Shown: positions 26,150 to 33,899 of the stretch, piece by piece
How the letters are laid out: every line of letters begins with the position of its first letter
How positions within the stretch are numbered: position 1 is the first letter of the stretch
DNA from: a virus
Lineage: Duplodnaviria > Heunggongvirae > Uroviricota > Caudoviricetes
Strand: one strand, 5' to 3'
Length of the DNA: 38,440 nucleotides
Virus record (IMG/VR): IMGVR_UViG_2663762939_000006
Position numbers and translations under genes: made by a program
Notes under the pieces: generated by a model
What the model saw: only the letters and a program-made list of their open reading frames with translations
Databases searched by the model: none
Told to the model about the DNA's origin: nothing

Positions 26150-26500
26150 TTAAAGCCCCATCGCAACAGCCAGACAGACCGCTGCAACAATCAGTGCACG
26201 GCGGATTAACGCAGCAGAAAACACCAGGTGAAGGCCGGTCTGTACCGGGAAACGCCCATCAGCCATCAGCCTGTCGTCATGTTTCAGGTACTGACCGGGA
26301 CGGGCTTTGGGGAAGAGCGAACGGTCAAGCCAGTAACCCAGCACTGCTGCCAGCGTGATGAGTGCCAGCTTGTAGATCACAACAGGCAACTGCTGTGGTG
26401 AGACCAGAGCGATGGTGCCCAGCAACAGCACTGAGGTCAGCAGCCAGCCGCTGAGGCGAGGTTTTTTAACAGGGGGAATGAATTTTTTCAGGTTTTTCAT
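26150..26500 (-). CDS. holin-like membrane protein
   Basis: ATG at 26498-26500 with SD AAGGAG; three predicted TM segments; first gene of the lysis cassette. Confidence 0.55.
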   Translation of the reverse strand: MKNLKKFIPPVKKPRLSGWLLTSVLLLGTIALVSPQQLPVVIYKLALITLAAVLGYWLDRSLFPKARPGQYLKHDDRLMADGRFPVQTGLHLVFSAALIRRALIVAAVCLAVAMGL

Positions 26501-26630
26501 GTGTGTCTCCTTGTCTGGTGGAGACAGCATCACAAATACAGGGCGCGAAGGATTTTAAAGCGCGTTAAGAGAGCCGGGGATACGGGATGTGCAGGATAAA
26601 CGATGAATTATTCACAGAGGAGAATACGAT

Positions 26631-27374
26631 ATGACGCAGACACTGAATCCGGTCATCACTGTCACCGTGTCCGGTCCTGTGGGCAGCGGTAAAAGTTACA
26701 TATTGGCGCGGATAGAGGAAGTGGTGAAACAGGAATTCGGGGGCAGCGTCATTGTCGATGCTGCAGACGTAGATGATGAGCGGCGTATGAGTGGCGATGA
26801 TCTGACGACCTGGCAGAAGCCACGGGGTGGCACAGTGATCAGGCTGGAGGAATACACGGGACAGGGCCTGTTGTCATACGGCGAGGAGCGTATCTGTCGG
26901 ACGAATGAGCTGCTGGATGTTATATGCCCCACGGGCCGGCAACCCTGGATACTGCCCGATGCACTGCATGCCACCATTGCGGCACTGATGACAGTTTACG
27001 ATCAGGAGCTGCTCATGAAGGAGCTACGTAAACTCACCGGTCAGCCAACAGAATGTTTTTCTGCCCCGAAGTACGGGAAACAGGAACACATCCCGGTGAA
27101 CACGCTCCCCGTTAACCAGCCTCCCCGGTTCTTCGACGAATACATTCTGACACCGGAAAATAAAGCTGAGCACGAAGAGATCAAAGCGGCGTTGTTCCGG
27201 GAAATCAGGAAGATTGCTGAAATGCAACTGGGGGGCGGGCTGGACAGAGTGATGGCGAGAGGAGAATGGGAGTCGCTGTTTGAAAGAGTTTCCCCGGAAT
27301 TACTTCCCCTCGCACTGGCTATCGGGATTATGCAGACAGCGGATAAACCTCACTTACGTTCATTAAACACGTAA
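26631..27374 (+). CDS. P-loop NTPase (Walker A GPVGSGKS at residues 15-22), possibly small kinase-like; function unknown
   Basis: ATG 26631 with SD GAGGAG; divergent from the late operon; N-terminal Walker A then VIVDAAD. Confidence 0.6.
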   Translation: MTQTLNPVITVTVSGPVGSGKSYILARIEEVVKQEFGGSVIVDAADVDDERRMSGDDLTTWQKPRGGTVIRLEEYTGQGLLSYGEERICRTNELLDVICPTGRQPWILPDALHATIAALMTVYDQELLMKELRKLTGQPTECFSAPKYGKQEHIPVNTLPVNQPPRFFDEYILTPENKAEHEEIKAALFREIRKIAEMQLGGGLDRVMARGEWESLFERVSPELLPLALAIGIMQTADKPHLRSLNT

Positions 27375-27754
27375 CGCATAATCCGGGATACGCATTCAGC
27401 GATGACTGCATTTTCACCGGTTTTTACTGCATCCAGAAGTGACTCTTTAAATGGTGCGGGCCGGGGCTGCAGAAGGGTCGGCGTGGCATTGAGCAGACGG
27501 AGCGTTTTTTCCGTGAGGACGACATCAGCCGCTCCCACAGCCAGCAACTGAGAGTAACGAATATAGCTGTTATCCCGAAGCCATATCAGCGTATCAATAA
27601 AATACCGGCACTTTTTCTGGTCGTGATCAACCTGGTCCGGGATATCGAAAAAACCAGAATAAATCAAAACCTGAGGTGCCGGATGCGTGTTCAGTAATCG
27701 GCAGAATATTTTGCCGGTGAGTGCATAAAAATCATCATTTAAGGAGTGCATCAT
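27350..27754 (-). CDS. hypothetical protein (134 aa)
   Basis: 134-codon open frame unlikely by chance; start ATG shares the palindromic TCATGA with the plus-strand gene; weak SD. Confidence 0.4.
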   Translation of the reverse strand: MMHSLNDDFYALTGKIFCRLLNTHPAPQVLIYSGFFDIPDQVDHDQKKCRYFIDTLIWLRDNSYIRYSQLLAVGAADVVLTEKTLRLLNATPTLLQPRPAPFKESLLDAVKTGENAVIAECVSRIMRYVFNERK

Positions 27755-27968
27755 GAATCCCCGATTAACGTTAACAGAACATCAGCGCCGTGCTGAAGCA
27801 GTGAACAATGTTCTGGAAGATATTATCCGGTTACATCGCGGAGAACTGAGTGTCTGTCGTGCCGCTTTTCATTTTCAGGGAATACAAAAGCAGTTTGATA
27901 CTTCTGTTTTTGCAGAAGGTATTACTTATGCCCTGGACCGGATAAGGTCAGAAAATCGCCCCGGATAA
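27753..27968 (+). CDS. hypothetical small protein (71 aa)
   Basis: ATG 27753 preceded by strong SD AAGGAG at 27741-27746. Confidence 0.6.
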   Translation: MNPRLTLTEHQRRAEAVNNVLEDIIRLHRGELSVCRAAFHFQGIQKQFDTSVFAEGITYALDRIRSENRPG

Positions 27969-28157
27969 TCCCTAAACCACATTAACAGAAATCCCACTAT
28001 CCCTGCCGCATCATGAAAGAACGACCAGCCCGGAACCCGAAATCCGGGCTGGCCATCGTCCCACAGGAATGCACTGTGAGCCGACCGAGGTTCAGTCAGT
28101 CTCGCGAGACCAGACTAGCCTGCCATATTTTTAGTAATTGTAAAAGGCTTACAGATT

Positions 28158-28922
28158 ATGAAAATGCAGACATTACCCATCGTTCCATGGATTGGTGGCA
28201 AACGCCGCCTTGCAAAACACATTCTGCCGCTGTTTCCGGCGCATGAATGTTATGTGGAGCCGTTTTGTGGGGCAGCAGCGCTCTATTTTCTTAAGACACC
28301 CGGCAAGATCGAAGTCATTAATGATATCAACGGTGAACTGGTGAATCTGTACCGGGTGGTAAAGCATCACCTGGAAGAATTTGTCCGCCAGTTCAAATGG
28401 GCGCTGGTCAGCCGTCAGATCTACAAATGGCTGCAGATCACCCCGGAAGAAACACTGACGGATATCCAGCGTGCGGCACGGTTCTACTACCTTCAGAAGC
28501 AGGCGTTTGGCGGCAAGGTGGCAGAGCACAGCTTCGGTACCTCCACCACATCCCCGCCACGCTTCAACCTGCTGCGTATTGAAGAAGAACTGTCAACAGC
28601 ACACCTGCGGCTTTCCAGAACAGTCATAGAACACATGGACTGGCAACAGTGCATTGAGCGTTATGATCGTCCGCACACACTGTTCTACTGCGACCCACCG
28701 TACCTGGGTACGGAAGGCTATGGTGTGGATTTTCCTGAAGGGAACTACTCGCGGCTGGCAGAGCTGGCCCGGTGCATCAGAGGAAAAATGATAATTTCGG
28801 TGAACGATATCCCACAGATGCGCGAGGTGTTCACTGGACTGAACATACAGACAGTGAACATCAACTACAGTCTGGCGGGGAAATCCACGCCGCGCCGTGA
28901 ACTGGTAATCTGCAACTTCTGA
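28158..28922 (+). CDS. DNA N6-adenine methyltransferase (Dam-like, D12 class)
   Basis: N-terminal ..KRRLAKHILPLFPAHECYVEPFCGAAALYF.. and catalytic DPPY motif (YCDPPYLGTEGYG). Confidence 0.85.
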   Translation: MKMQTLPIVPWIGGKRRLAKHILPLFPAHECYVEPFCGAAALYFLKTPGKIEVINDINGELVNLYRVVKHHLEEFVRQFKWALVSRQIYKWLQITPEETLTDIQRAARFYYLQKQAFGGKVAEHSFGTSTTSPPRFNLLRIEEELSTAHLRLSRTVIEHMDWQQCIERYDRPHTLFYCDPPYLGTEGYGVDFPEGNYSRLAELARCIRGKMIISVNDIPQMREVFTGLNIQTVNINYSLAGKSTPRRELVICNF

Positions 28923-28952
28923 AACAAAACCGGAAAGCACAATGCTTTCCGG
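28922..28952 (-). terminator. rho-independent terminator downstream of the repressor gene
   Basis: 9-bp GC-rich stem CCGGAAAGC/GCTTTCCGG with 5-nt loop, followed on the minus strand by TTTTGTTT. Confidence 0.6.
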
Positions 28953-29038
28953 TAAACCAAACAACTTCCACTATGTCACTGGCGATGTTTTCTGAAAGCA
29001 TCCAGATCAACCACCTGTCCTTTGTGTCCAGGTCAAAA

Positions 29039-29377
29039 TCAGCCTGCGAGTTTGCTTGGTTTGGGTTGAATGAAGACTTTGCCGACCTCAAGAATTGCCC
29101 TCCGTTGTTCGGGGCTCATTTCGTCGAATGCATCCATTAACTCTTTCTTTTCTTGTGACACATAAGGTGCAACAACAGGCTGACTCCGCACCCCAGTAAC
29201 TACATACAAAATATCTACACCGATTTCTGATAGTGCAGATAACTGCACTGCAGTAGGAGAAGTGCGATCTTTTTCCCAATCAATGAAAGTTCTCTTTGCC
29301 ACACCTATAGCATCAGCCAACCCTTGCTGTGTAAGAGATAGACGCTCTCTTTCTTCTTTAATACGTAACCCGATCAT
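29039..29377 (-). CDS. XRE-family HTH repressor (immunity repressor candidate); start ambiguous (29377, 29452/29455 or 29530)
   Basis: MIGLRIKEERERLSLTQQGLADAIGVAKRTFIDWEKDRTSP is a classic XRE helix-turn-helix; divergent from the Ner-like gene. Confidence 0.7.
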   Translation of the reverse strand: MIGLRIKEERERLSLTQQGLADAIGVAKRTFIDWEKDRTSPTAVQLSALSEIGVDILYVVTGVRSQPVVAPYVSQEKKELMDAFDEMSPEQRRAILEVGKVFIQPKPSKLAG

Positions 29378-29401
29378 GTGAGTTTTTCTGCACTCTTTAA
29401 G

Positions 29402-29430
29402 TTGACTGGTGAGGTAATCTGCACCATAAT
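29402..29430 (+). promoter_or_regulatory. sigma70-type early promoter (-35 TTGACT, 17-bp spacer, -10 CATAAT) with overlapping imperfect palindrome
   Basis: Near-consensus hexamers 48 bp upstream of the Ner-like ATG; TGGTGAG-N6-TGCACCA palindrome spans the spacer. Confidence 0.6.
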
Positions 29431-29477
29431 CTATCACACATAAGGCAAACATCATTGCATCAACAAAGGAGACAACG

Positions 29478-29666
29478 ATGACTGCAGAACAAGTCAAAGC
29501 TCTCTTCCGCCAGCGCGGGATCACTTTCACCCGCTGGGCAGAAGAAAACGGCTACAACCGCAATGAGGTATACCGCGTTCTCAATGGGCAGACCAAAGCC
29601 CGTTACGGTAAATCCCATGAAATCGCCGTGAAGTTGGGGCTGAAATCAACAGCTCAGGCAGCCTGA
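29478..29666 (+). CDS. ner: Ner/Nlp-like small DNA-binding regulator
   Basis: SD AAAGGAGA then ATG 29478; ..GYNRNEVYRVLNGQTKARYGKSHEIAVKLGL aligns with Mu Ner ..GYAPTTLANALERHWPKGEQIIANAL as recalled. Confidence 0.6.
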   Translation: MTAEQVKALFRQRGITFTRWAEENGYNRNEVYRVLNGQTKARYGKSHEIAVKLGLKSTAQAA

Positions 29667-30952: not shown

Positions 30953-32722
30953 ATGAATGCTGCCCTGACTGAACGACTGGTTTATGTCGCCCGCGCGGCA
31001 CGTGACGCGGGGCATGGTAAACGCGGTGCAATATACGACGCTGCCTGTGCTGAACTTGGCATGTCCCGCGCCACTCTGCTGCGCAGGCTGAAGGAGGTCT
31101 CTGTGACTGATAAACGCAAAAAACGCGCCGATGCCGGGCGCAGCGCCCTGACCCGCGACGAAGCCGCGCTGATATCTGCCACACTGCGTGAGGCCACCCG
31201 CAAGAACGGTAAGCGTCTCTATTCCATCGCAGATGCAGTGGAAACCCTGCGGGCTAACGGCTTTATCACCGCAGGCAGAACAGATGAAACCACCGGTGAG
31301 TTTTTCCCGTTGTCCGAAGATGCCATCAGCCGAGCCCTGCGTAACTATGGCCTGCACCCGGAACAACTGGATGCCCCTGCGCCGCATACCGAAGTGGCCA
31401 GTCTGCATCCCAATCATGTCTGGCAGATTGATGCCTCTCTCTGCACGCTTTACTACCTGAGCAATGGACACAAAGGGCTGCAGGTGATGGACAGCGCGAA
31501 GTTCTACAAGAACAAACCCGCTAACCTTGCCCGTATCGCCAGTGACCGCGTGTGGAGTTACGAGATTACCGACCATGCCAGCGGCTGGATTTACGTTGAG
31601 TATGTGACGGGTGCGGAATCCGGTGAGAACCTGTGTTCTGTGCTTATCAACGCCATGCAGGAGCGTGGCGGCGCAGACGTGCTGCACGGCGTGCCAAAAA
31701 TACTCTATCTCGACCCCGGCTCGGCAAACACCGCGGGTATGACGAAAAACATGTGCCACTCACTGGGCATTGACCTGATAGCGCACAAGCCGCATAACGC
31801 CCGCGCCACCGGACAGGTGGAAAAGGCGCGTGACATTATCGAACGCAAGCTGGAGCCGGGTCTGAAGTTCCGGCCGGTTCACAGTCTGGAAGAACTCAAC
31901 GCGCTGGCCGCGAAATGGCGCAGCCACTTTAACGCCACGGCTGTTCACAGCCGCCACGGTAAAACCCGCACGGATATCTGGCTGAAGATTACTGCTGAGC
32001 AGCTGAAAAAAGCGCCTTCCGTTGAGGTATGCCGTGAACTGGCTGTGGCGGCACCAGAACTCCGCAAAGTCACGCCAAAACTTCGTGTCTCGTTCCGGGG
32101 CACTGAATTTGACGTATCAACGGTACCGGGCGTACTGGTTGGTGAAAAACTGATGATTACCCGTAACCCGTGGCGCAGCGATGTGGCACAGGTGGTTCTG
32201 ACCGGTGAGGACGGCCACGAGACGTTCTTCCTGGTCGAAGAGGTCAGAAAGAACGAGTTTGGCTTTGCTGAAGGCGCGGCGGTATTTGGCGAAAGTTACA
32301 AAGCCCTGCCGGAAACCCCGGCGCAGATGGCGGCAAAAGAAACCGAAGCGCTGGTCACCGGTACAGACAACGCCGCAGATGCAGCTGCCGCACGCAAGGC
32401 GAAGGCGCTGCCGTTCGGCGGGCGGCTTGACCCGTATAAACATATCGACGACACCACACTTCCGGCCTATATGCCGAAGCGTGGTCAGGCCTCTGACGTA
32501 CGCGGGCCGCGCACTGAACAACGTCCCATGACTCATGTGGAGGCCGCGAAAGCCCTGCGCGATAAGTTCAGCGCCGACGGCCTTACCTGGACGCCGGAAC
32601 ATTACCGCCAGTTAACGGCACAGTACCCGGACGGCGTACCGGAAGCCGCACTGGATGAAGTCATGGCCACGCTGACCACACCGGCCCGCAGCAGTGTTAT
32701 CAGCATTGTTAACGGCAACTGA
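30953..32722 (+). CDS. DDE transposase (Mu A-like, integrase-core fold)
   Basis: 589 aa; ..HVWQIDAS.. and ..LYLDPGSANT.. acidic-residue blocks consistent with a DDE/rve core; followed by a B-like ATPase. Confidence 0.8.
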   Translation: MNAALTERLVYVARAARDAGHGKRGAIYDAACAELGMSRATLLRRLKEVSVTDKRKKRADAGRSALTRDEAALISATLREATRKNGKRLYSIADAVETLRANGFITAGRTDETTGEFFPLSEDAISRALRNYGLHPEQLDAPAPHTEVASLHPNHVWQIDASLCTLYYLSNGHKGLQVMDSAKFYKNKPANLARIASDRVWSYEITDHASGWIYVEYVTGAESGENLCSVLINAMQERGGADVLHGVPKILYLDPGSANTAGMTKNMCHSLGIDLIAHKPHNARATGQVEKARDIIERKLEPGLKFRPVHSLEELNALAAKWRSHFNATAVHSRHGKTRTDIWLKITAEQLKKAPSVEVCRELAVAAPELRKVTPKLRVSFRGTEFDVSTVPGVLVGEKLMITRNPWRSDVAQVVLTGEDGHETFFLVEEVRKNEFGFAEGAAVFGESYKALPETPAQMAAKETEALVTGTDNAADAAAARKAKALPFGGRLDPYKHIDDTTLPAYMPKRGQASDVRGPRTEQRPMTHVEAAKALRDKFSADGLTWTPEHYRQLTAQYPDGVPEAALDEVMATLTTPARSSVISIVNGN

Positions 32723-32732
32723 GGAGGGAAAC

Positions 32733-33899
32733 ATGCTGGTACTGAAGCAGCAACTGAAAGAGGCCCGTATTCCACAGGCGGTGGTGGCGAGAGCTGTCGA
32801 TGTTTCTGAGGCCACGCTGGCCCAGATTGTGAATCATAACGCGTGGCCCCGCACCAGCCCCGGAGAAGTGCGCCGGCGTCTTGCGTCCTGGCTGGAAAGT
32901 CAGGGGATTGATACAACGAAGAGTTTTGATGCTGTACAGGGCGCGGCCACGCCCCGTACAGCGGGTACCACAGATAAAACGAGCCTCAGTGAGGAAGAGA
33001 ATATGTTACTCAAAAAACAGGTGTTATTTCCAGCAACCAAAAAAGCGTTTGGTCTTTTCCGTGACCCGTTCGCCGACGAAGCCATTCAGGGTTCTGATGA
33101 TGTGTTCACCACCCCGGACATTCGCTACGTGCGTGAGGCGTTGTACCAGACAGCCCGTCATGGTGGGTTTATGGCCGTCATCGGTGAGTCCGGTGCGGGT
33201 AAATCCACGCTGCGCCGCGACCTGACTGAACGTATCAACCGCGAGAATGCGCCGGTAATTGTTATCGAGCCATACATCATCGCTATGGAAGACAACGATG
33301 TGAAAGGGAAAACCCTGAAGGCAGCAGCGATTGCCGAAGCCATTATCAGTACCATCGCACCACTGGAAAGCATCAGACGCAGTCAGGACGCCCGCTTTCG
33401 CCAGTTGCATCGCGTCCTGAAAGACAGCAGCCAGGCGGGGTTCAGCCACGTTCTGGTGATTGAGGAGGCCCACAGTCTGCCTATTCCGACACTGAAACAC
33501 CTCAAACGCTTTTTTGAGCTGGAGTCCGGTTTCAAAAAACTGCTGTCCATCGTGCTGATTGGCCAGCCGGAACTGGCGACAAAACTGTCTGAACGCAATA
33601 TGGAAGTCCGTGAAGTCGTTCAGCGCTGTGAGGTGGTCGAACTTCTGCCTCTGGACAATAACCTTGAAGAGTTTCTGACGTTCAAACTGCAACGGGCCGG
33701 TAAACAACTGACGGACATTATGGACGCCAGCGCAGTGGATGCCATACGTGCCCGCCTGAGCAATCCGGGAAGTCATCGTAAAAATATGGTCAGCCTGCTG
33801 TATCCGCTGGCCGTCAGTAACCTGGTAATAGCCGCCATGAATCTGGCCGCTGAAATCGGGGTTCCACAGGTCAACGCTGACGTTGTCAAAGGGGTTTAA
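32733..33899 (+). CDS. transposition ATPase (Mu B-like AAA+ with N-terminal HTH)
   Basis: ATG 32733 after SD GAGGAGGG; Walker A GESGAGKST; N-terminal DNA-binding-like segment. Confidence 0.75.
   Translation: MLVLKQQLKEARIPQAVVARAVDVSEATLAQIVNHNAWPRTSPGEVRRRLASWLESQGIDTTKSFDAVQGAATPRTAGTTDKTSLSEEENMLLKKQVLFPATKKAFGLFRDPFADEAIQGSDDVFTTPDIRYVREALYQTARHGGFMAVIGESGAGKSTLRRDLTERINRENAPVIVIEPYIIAMEDNDVKGKTLKAAAIAEAIISTIAPLESIRRSQDARFRQLHRVLKDSSQAGFSHVLVIEEAHSLPIPTLKHLKRFFELESGFKKLLSIVLIGQPELATKLSERNMEVREVVQRCEVVELLPLDNNLEEFLTFKLQRAGKQLTDIMDASAVDAIRARLSNPGSHRKNMVSLLYPLAVSNLVIAAMNLAAEIGVPQVNADVVKGV

Follow-up and report, generated by a model that had tools for sequence, protein, structure and literature searches.

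A small P-loop module with variable C-terminal extensions encoded in the cargo slot of a BcepMu-type prophage of Escherichia coli

The stretch of DNA analysed here, referred to in its whole length of 38,440 nucleotides as the window, is a tailed-phage sequence (IMG/VR record IMGVR_UViG_2663762939_000006) that, over the region searched, is 100% identical to the chromosome of Escherichia coli SK1144. Between its holin gene and its repressor gene lies an open reading frame (ORF) for a protein of 247 amino acids (aa) with an N-terminal Walker A motif, hereafter the P-loop gene and the P-loop protein (Table 1). We report that the only part of this protein conserved throughout its family is an N-terminal unit of about 75 residues, the mini P-loop module, and that residues 1-75 fold autonomously, because the same unit occurs as a complete protein of 70-90 aa in many unrelated phages. 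As judged by sequence comparison, the remaining 170 residues consist of two short, apparently helical modules (M1 and M2) and a probably disordered linker; among related prophages these modules have been swapped, deleted and reordered. The P-loop protein is neither a kinase nor an ABC ATPase, nor does it belong with the known defence effectors; its possible function is discussed below.

The P-loop ORF is a genuine gene under purifying selection and not a chance reading frame, as several features show. It matches PHROG 3787 (function unknown) over its full length (residues 1-247 to profile positions 1-242, E 3.8e-164, 544.8 bits), which is its sole full-length match. Compared with its counterpart in Escherichia phage PhiKM, at 96% nucleotide identity, it has a dN/dS of 0.215 (about 0.2 in both the N- and the C-terminal part) and a single indel, of five codons and in frame. 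It is annotated in RefSeq (WP_000194949.1, 'hypothetical protein'), and the 1.4-kb region that contains it has a match in 633 of 5426 complete E. coli genomes; in 473 of these the match spans 80% of the region or more. An earlier description of this DNA made without database searches (the sequence-only reading) had given the ORF, its strand, its length of 247 aa, the motif GPVGSGKS at residues 15-22 and a good Shine-Dalgarno sequence, all of which we find as described. The distance of 130 bp that it gave to the holin start is correct for the start used by RefSeq (26500) and shrinks to about 100 bp when counted from an in-frame upstream ATG (26530).

The limits of the conserved part are drawn by an exhaustive HMMER search of 1.84 billion representative sequences, which returned 64 proteins; nearly all matches other than those of the E. 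coli type cover only residues 1-75 of the query. A word-indexed search recovered only the E. coli-type relatives. Two long repeat proteins from the exhaustive search, P0046 (with Ig repeats) and P0068, were rejected as spurious matches driven by their repeats. The free-standing module proteins are complete ORFs of 70-90 aa situated in long contigs of Acinetobacter (one of them the 73-aa protein P0099), Yersinia and metagenomic phages, and many of them end at or just past a conserved acidic residue, residue 74. It is the first ~75 positions of PHROG 3787 that these free-standing homologues match; the PHROG itself is a catalogue entry with no function, structure or literature, and does not show that, outside the E. 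coli-type prophages, conservation is limited to those positions. The sequence-only reading had taken the product to be one 247-aa P-loop protein: its Walker A motif is real, and what is conserved amounts to a module of only ~75 aa, after which exchangeable C-terminal modules follow.

Within the module a predicted strand (residues 8-14) leads into the Walker A motif and a helix (21-39), which are followed by a second predicted strand, a short helix (45-54) that carries Glu50-Arg51, and a last hydrophobic strand running to Glu74. Conservation was counted over 62 diverse family members. In the Walker A motif G15 is retained in 60 of them, and G20, K21 and S/T22 in all 62. Outside it, I28, A31 and L32 are each found in 58-60 members, Y36-G37 in 57-58, S44 in 54 and P64 in 56, and position 74 is acidic without exception (Glu in 59, Asp in 3), preceded by a hydrophobic stretch of the form hh-x-h-x-[E/D]. 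P-loop NTPases such as the nucleotide kinases and ABC ATPases likewise have GxxxxGK[ST] after a hydrophobic strand, then a helix. Their Walker B motif is a hydrophobic strand with a terminal Asp or Glu that coordinates Mg2+, for which VIRLEE (residues 69-74) would be the candidate counterpart. 

An AlphaFold2 (AF2) model of residues 1-80, built on the family alignment, was confident, with a predicted local distance difference test score (pLDDT) of 88.8 and a predicted template modelling score of 0.75; it contains helices at 21-39 and 45-54 and no strands assigned by DSSP. No significant structural neighbour was found for this model of the module (pLDDT 89). The full-length protein, modelled on the shallow E. 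coli alignment, gave a pLDDT of 43, which makes it unusable except as a rough guide to secondary structure (strands 8-14, 41-46 and 69-75), and the helix at 21-39 is present in both models. Of the marks of the P-loop superfamily, the protein displays the Walker A signature GxxxxGK[S/T] between a strand and a helix, and lacks the three-layer alpha/beta fold with a central, mostly parallel sheet of at least five strands. Going by sequence and predicted model, membership would hold at the level of the motif and not at that of the fold.

The C-terminal part varies among relatives. M1 is found again at the extreme C-terminus of other members, and also in two proteins that have no P-loop module (P0057 and P0058), and relatives of M2 occur in other members in a different order. 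E. coli variants include proteins of 182 aa, which lack residues 52-124, and others of 141-158 aa, which lack M2. Relatives of 200-360 aa are encoded in BcepMu-like prophages of Citrobacter, Salmonella diarizonae, Hafnia and others, in the same slot and divergent from the holin gene, and in their C-terminal regions short modules are shuffled, duplicated or replaced. The linker of the window protein holds an in-frame tandem duplication of five codons (PVNTL/PVNQP, 27093-27122) that is absent from PhiKM, and homology to the type of cargo found in strain IAI39 stops at 27096, inside this repeat; from its sequence the site looks like a recombination junction. The C-terminal 167 residues have no match in the PDB, and a PHROG search with them gives only PHROG 3787 itself. 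One further member, P0080 (locus L022, 1919-2398), has 159 aa and joins a peptidoglycan-binding domain, PG_binding_1, to the mini P-loop module. It is known from a single metagenomic contig of 2.9 kb, and the fusion may be real and connected with lysis, or else an artefact of assembly or annotation.

Table 1. Position of the P-loop gene, its parts and the neighbouring features in the window
Feature	Coordinates	Strand	Remarks
P-loop ORF	26631..27374	+	247 aa plus stop; ATG 26631, stop 27372-27374; PHROG 3787 member
Shine-Dalgarno sequence GAGGAG	26617..26622	+	8 nt before ATG 26631; read off the sequence
Mini P-loop module, residues 1-75	26631..26855	+	sole family-wide conserved part; HMMER, alignments, AF2
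Walker A GPVGSGKS, residues 15-22	26673..26696	+	only segment matching P-loop families in Pfam and PDB
Glu50-Arg51, 'L..ER' motif	26778..26783	+	E50 in 60/62, R51 in 37/62 members
Walker-B-like strand VIRLEE, residues 69-74	26835..26852	+	conserved acidic residue at end
Putative helical module M1, residues ~86-135, ...WILPDALHATIAALMTVYDQELLMKELRKL	26886..27035	+	exchangeable; missing in 182-aa E. coli variants
Pro-rich low-complexity linker	27036..27155	+	predicted disordered by AF2, pLDDT about 25
Putative helical module M2, residues ~176-238, ...LDRVMARGEWESLFERVSPELLPLALAIGIMQ	27156..27344	+	absent from common 141-158 aa variants
Divergent control region	26534..26630	.	between holin and P-loop gene
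Holin	26150..26533	-	first gene of late lysis/structural operon; Pfam Holin_2-3 E 1.5e-41; PHROG 1528
134-aa ORF	27350..27754	-	PHROG 2266, unknown function; convergent, overlaps 3' end of P-loop gene by 25 bp
71-aa ORF	27753..27968	+	PHROG 4490, unknown function; slot cargo
Dam-family N6-adenine DNA methyltransferase	28158..28922	+	TIGR00571, 117 bits
Helix-turn-helix (cI-like) repressor	29039..29530	-	bounds cargo slot; shorter start in RefSeq gives a 339-nt gene

So much variation might be taken as a sign of decay. Truncated and internally deleted variants are common, homology breaks off within the gene, at a short duplication, and some relatives have a degenerate Walker A motif, so that the ORF could be the remnant of a larger P-loop gene, kept by its location at a recombination junction. 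We hold this to be very improbable in view of the low dN/dS in both parts of the gene and the confident fold predicted for the module, and in view of the module's 30-58% identity between different genera and types of phage, its motif residues being invariant, and of a slot that is conserved in four genera.

The sequence-only reading could not assign the protein to a family, and the searches bear this out, Pfam, NCBIfam, PADLOC and the PDB profiles all giving sub-threshold matches only. None of the curated Pfam or NCBIfam models scores as high as its cut-off, and the matches (AAA_30 17-20 bits, KAP 13-15 bits, ABC_tran 16 bits, the PADLOC model mad8 14.5 bits) all fall within residues ~3-50. 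Profile searches of the PDB with three alignments returned dozens of unrelated P-loop proteins, aligned only over the strand-Walker A-helix(-strand) segment. The best was cytidylate kinase 1q3t (E 1e-4, query residues 4-30), and the others included ABC transporters, PilT, UreG and fragments of EF-Tu. Designed proteins were also among the matches, 6c2u with an E value of 0.002 and 9jix with 0.0014-0.03, the latter giving the longest alignment (50-66 residues). In the library searched, no paper on the P-loop protein or on PHROG 3787 was found.

Three assignments suggested by such matches were considered and rejected. As an ABC transporter ATPase, whose nucleotide-binding domain has ~200 aa, the protein scores 16.4 bits with ABC_tran (E 0.014) over profile positions 7-52 only, against a Pfam cut-off of 25 bits, and 10-15 bits with the NCBIfam ABC models, against cut-offs of 220-870, and no LSGGQ signature, Q-loop or H-loop is present. 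As a KAP family NTPase it reaches 13.1-14.9 bits against a cut-off of 20, over profile positions 15-55 only of a domain of ~290 positions. With nucleoside and nucleotide monophosphate kinases, which have ~180-230 aa, only its first 25-35 residues align, and it has no nucleoside monophosphate (NMP)-binding domain, LID domain or any further domain. Because the database matches are confined to the Walker A segment, the labels carried by relatives, namely 'ABC transporter ATPase' (the 141-158 aa variants in RefSeq), 'KAP family NTPase' (some fragments at NCBI), 'uridine kinase' and 'thymidylate/uridylate kinase', are automatic transfers from the Walker A match.

That these labels are nevertheless right, so that the protein would be a kinase of nucleosides or nucleotides, or else a true ATPase of the ABC or KAP type, is a view which we regard as effectively refuted. 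It can draw on the match to 1q3t, on a superficial likeness, displayed by hhalign, of 'EYG..VAS.DL..ER' to 'EKYG..IS.GD.LR' of adenylate kinase, and on a Vibrio phage member encoded between the genes for thymidylate synthase and dihydrofolate reductase. The matches stay below cut-offs and span about 25-50 residues around the Walker A motif, and the hhalign comparison, run against a manually entered adenylate kinase sequence, was not significant (probability 1.6%, 33 columns). The conserved unit, of only 70-75 aa, has no NMP-binding or LID region, ABC signature, Q-loop or H-loop. Nor did the profile search proposed in the sequence-only reading place the protein in a housekeeping kinase family with full catalytic motifs and the synteny of a core phage gene. 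The mini P-loop module is without a characterised relative, and the P-loop protein has so far been catalogued only as PHROG 3787 and is mislabelled in several databases.

The element that carries the P-loop gene is a BcepMu-type transposable prophage, its late and early arms diverging from a central slot. The window is 96% identical to PhiKM, which is classified as a Bcepmuvirus, and has Mu-like head, tail and lysis genes divergent from the early operon, in the same layout as BcepMu. Leftward run the genes for the holin, an SLT endolysin, a spanin, a Mu gp27-like protein, the terminase, the portal and the other products of a late operon of the Mu type; rightward, from about 29478, RefSeq and Pfam place a Ner-like protein, an rve transposase, an ExeA/MuB-like AAA_22 ATPase, Gam, GemA and Mor. 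The P-loop gene accordingly lies outside both conserved operons, as the sequence-only reading had stated. The protein at the MuB position (32694-33899) is an ExeA/AAA_22-type ATPase and not a homologue of Mu B, as is also the case for BcepMu gp08; its GTG start at 32694 overlaps the transposase gene, and RefSeq starts it at about 32733 (1167 nt).

The P-loop gene is dispensable cargo and not a core gene. In E. coli prophages that share the holin and the early genes, the slot from holin to repressor (26534-29530) is occupied by at least four gene sets: the arrangement of the window, with the P-loop gene, the PHROG 2266 and PHROG 4490 ORFs and the Dam gene; a 158-aa version of the P-loop protein (in RefSeq an 'ABC transporter ATPase'), accompanied by two unrelated genes on the minus strand; DUF2441 with unknown genes and no P-loop gene; and Dam with one unknown gene, again with no P-loop gene. 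Elsewhere the same slot holds a P-loop gene in prophages of Hafnia, Citrobacter and Salmonella, with 31-58% identity in the N-terminal module and different C-termini. BcepMu has the unrelated gp18-20 at this position and no P-loop homologue by tblastn. The accessory status proposed in the sequence-only reading is therefore supported, the content of the slot being swappable, and the conservation check that it suggested shows a gene that in related E. coli prophages is present at full length, truncated to 141-158 aa or missing. Alternative cargo (loci L003, L020 and L021) includes ORFans of 175-328 aa, and a Citrobacter relative (L052) has a YecR-like lipoprotein in the slot.

The PHROG 2266 ORF is absent beside the P-loop homologues of IAI39, Hafnia, Citrobacter and Salmonella and is not a conserved partner, and the PHROG 4490 ORF likewise does not accompany the P-loop gene in other genera. 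The starts of these two ORFs abut at 27753/27754, back to back and divergent, with zero intergenic space. The Dam gene lies downstream of the P-loop gene on the same strand in four genera, directly so in S. diarizonae. Between the convergent Dam and repressor genes there is a hairpin with an 11-bp stem (28929-28953), which the terminator scan calls as a terminator-like site of the minus strand and which, from its position, could act in both directions.

A swappable slot beside the immunity region, outside the early and late operons, with a gene on its own strand behind a good Shine-Dalgarno sequence, is what one might expect of a superinfection-exclusion or abortive-infection protein expressed in the lysogen from its own promoter, with the P-loop powering or gating an activity that blocks other phages, and the variable C-terminal modules on a constant N-terminal module resemble sensor or effector diversification. 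Accessory genes of prophage hot spots, such as the P2 and P4 defence hot spots (PMC9122126), and multi-module polyvalent phage proteins are comparable in the swappable slot and in the pairing of a constant module with shuffled ones. Unlike in those systems, no known defence or anti-defence domain was detected in the P-loop protein or in its slot neighbours, except for the orphan Dam methyltransferase. Described polyvalent phage proteins are, moreover, much larger than the P-loop protein. In PADLOC-DB 2.0 the best matches of the P-loop protein were mad8 (14.5 bits) and SngB (11.5 bits), both on the P-loop region only and at the level of noise; the slot neighbours in the window matched only methyltransferase models, and ten alternative slot cargo proteins gave no credible match. 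The exclusion or defence role advanced in the sequence-only reading receives no support from these searches. Its suggestion of expression in the lysogen fares no better, a sigma-70 scan of the divergent region between the holin and the P-loop gene finding no promoter. No effector domain is recognisable, and the free-standing forms of 70 aa are too small for a sensor plus an effector. With the module found elsewhere in lytic-cycle operons, and among the nucleotide-metabolism genes of a 130-kb seawater phage, we consider an exclusion protein unlikely.

The divergent control region itself contains two blocks conserved in four genera, TTTTAAAG..TTAA (26553-26571) and GCAGGAT (26591-26597). Read on the minus strand, that of the holin gene, the first block has a good -10 element (TAAAAT) and no -35 element, which in Mu is expected of a late promoter that depends on an activator of the Mor/C type, and a Mor homologue is encoded in the early arm of the window. 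The TAAAAT block could be a candidate Mor-dependent late lysis promoter, with GCAGGAT as its activator site; alternatively, GCAGGAT and TTAAGA (26566-26571), separated by a 19-bp spacer, could form a weak promoter of the P-loop gene. The combined motif occurs once in the window, and a search for a second copy at other late-operon starts found GCAGGAT at chance rate, its one intergenic copy, near the sheath gene, having no alignable promoter. The holin gene has in-frame starts at 26533 (GTG), 26530 (ATG, MLSPP...) and 26500 (ATG, MKNLKKF, the RefSeq start). The sequence comparison suggests a dual-start holin/antiholin pair, because the upstream ATG at 26530 and the N-terminal extension are conserved in Citrobacter, Salmonella and Hafnia. 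A hairpin in the holin mRNA (TGTCTCC-N9-GGAGACA, within 26490-26550) buries the Shine-Dalgarno sequence of the downstream start; at -14.2 kcal/mol (z -1.9) it is weakly better than its shuffles.

What the module does is better approached through its other occurrences, and all contexts examined were phage. In Acinetobacter prophages it stands at the end of a nin-like early region, beside an HNH gene and just before the gene for the small terminase subunit (TerS), whereas in a Yersinia prophage and a metagenomic phage it comes directly after the lysis cassette, ahead of HNH, TerS and the large terminase subunit and on the same strand. In P22-like contigs it belongs to the nin region, where NinB, a RecA-dependent nuclease and DUF1064 are its neighbours, and in a circular siphovirus genome to the early region, near a Lar gene. 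An 82-aa member (L018, 3983-4231) is encoded between thymidylate synthase and dihydrofolate reductase in Vibrio phage 1.101.O (MG592473), a phage of 130 kb isolated from seawater on Enterovibrio; this member is also close to a ribonucleotide reductase gene, the only hint of a link with nucleotide metabolism. Such positions are the classical accessory-gene sites of lambdoid, P22-like and HK97-like genomes and are transcribed in the lytic cycle. Because the free-standing module occupies positions in lytic-cycle operons, it most likely functions during phage development, and these contexts argue, though not conclusively, against a prophage-expressed defence role for the E. coli gene.

Neighbours were surveyed in 25 IMG/VR loci, three ORFs to each side, some of the loci being near-duplicates and the ORFs crudely called. 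Their proteins included HNH (PF01844; 11), the TerS families Terminase_2 (9) and Terminase_4 (3), holin or lysis proteins (6) and a single protein with an Acb2/Tad1 domain. HNH or TerS lies within three ORFs of the module in about half of the 25 loci, not all of which are independent. One could conclude that the module is an accessory of packaging or of lysis timing, a small nucleotide-binding protein that modulates TerS, HNH, the terminase or the holin, the more so as it directly follows the lysis cassette in the Yersinia and metagenomic phages, adjoins the holin gene in the window and in Hafnia, Citrobacter and Salmonella, and is fused in P0080 to PG_binding_1. We think this improbable. The gene is dispensable, for BcepMu lacks it, as do many E. 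coli relatives that share the holin and terminase, and the Mu-like phages transcribe it away from the late operon. The association with HNH and TerS may also be purely positional, because accessory genes in lambdoid genomes generally collect at the junction between lysis and terminase genes, and some of the loci that contribute to it are near-duplicates.

The same distribution invites a reading as counter-defence, in which an oligomer of the module would sequester a nucleotide immune signal or ATP, as a sponge, or the C-terminal modules would bind and block host defence proteins as a small polyvalent protein does. The module is small and free-standing, and its distribution is patchy, over temperate and lytic phages that are unrelated to one another, and confined to accessory hot spots; Lar restriction-alleviation genes are nearby in two loci, and the neighbour with an Acb2/Tad1 domain was seen in one of 25; the strand is shared with a Dam-type methyltransferase in four genera, and the C-terminal modules are shuffled. 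These associations are few and positional, however, and the protein shows no likeness to a known sponge or anti-defence family: Acb2_Tad1_hairpin, searched as a Pfam model, matched neither the P-loop protein nor any of the 62 family members, a result that does not extend to families outside Pfam. Walker A loops bind linear tri- or diphosphates, and we know of no sponge that uses one. We therefore judge counter-defence in this form quite unlikely.

We favour, as a tentative proposal that we rate at somewhat less than an even chance, a switch or adaptor that binds nucleotides, has its partners determined by the C-terminal modules and serves host takeover or conflict during phage growth. The mini P-loop would bind a Mg-nucleotide or another phosphate ligand, and it would probably do so as an oligomer, because three strands cannot form the usual five-stranded core. 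In this capacity the module would act as a small switch or adaptor, the variable C-terminal modules conferring specificity for partners, and it would presumably act during phage development, in host takeover or in phage-host conflict. Designed P-loop polypeptides of 40-110 residues bind nucleoside triphosphates and nucleic acids (10.1101/2020.07.30.228619; PMC10119929; PMC7758060), and they do so as oligomers (10.1101/2020.07.30.228619; PMC10119929); these polypeptides are a biochemical precedent for function in so small a protein. Minimal designs such as 6c2u/6c2v and PL2x4_2 (9jix) are of a similar size class and have a beta-(P-loop)-alpha core; unlike these laboratory constructs, the family described here is natural and has its own ER motif, Pro64 and terminal acidic residue. 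A bolder version seems to us a long shot. In it no autonomous P-loop protein in nature would be smaller than the N-terminal module, a Walker A plus Walker B unit of ~70 residues that would bind nucleotides as an oligomer, a counterpart of the beta-(P-loop)-alpha 'prototype' polypeptides made as models of how NTPases began; phages would use it, by itself or joined to exchangeable adaptor modules, as a device for sequestering or gating nucleotides against host immunity.

Several observations weigh against the switch or adaptor. Some homologues in the BcepMu slot have a degenerate motif (SGAESSGKN or SGAENAGKN) and no ER motif, so that nucleotide chemistry may be dispensable in that lineage and catalysis perhaps not universal. 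The ~70 residues hold nothing beyond Walker A and B, with no sensor, arginine finger or base-recognition elements. No conserved partner gene was found for the module, and database annotation gives the P-loop protein no function.

The P-loop protein represents the P-loop theme in an extreme form, both miniaturised and modular. Its gene is common and well conserved, and its structure is unusual. A prophage with the P-loop gene is present in roughly a tenth of complete E. coli genomes, those of ST131 strains included, and the database labels attached to its product are misleading. If neither nucleotide binding by the module alone nor a part in phage-host conflict holds true, the gene would be one of many conserved phage ORFans, and the practical gain would be to correct the labels 'ABC transporter ATPase' and 'KAP NTPase'. 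If the 70-residue module does bind nucleotides unaided, natural P-loop proteins could be smaller than any known so far, and the origin of NTPases would become accessible to experiment. If it acts in phage-host conflict, it would be a widespread and very small building block, and its shuffled C-terminal modules would be candidate target-specific adaptors.

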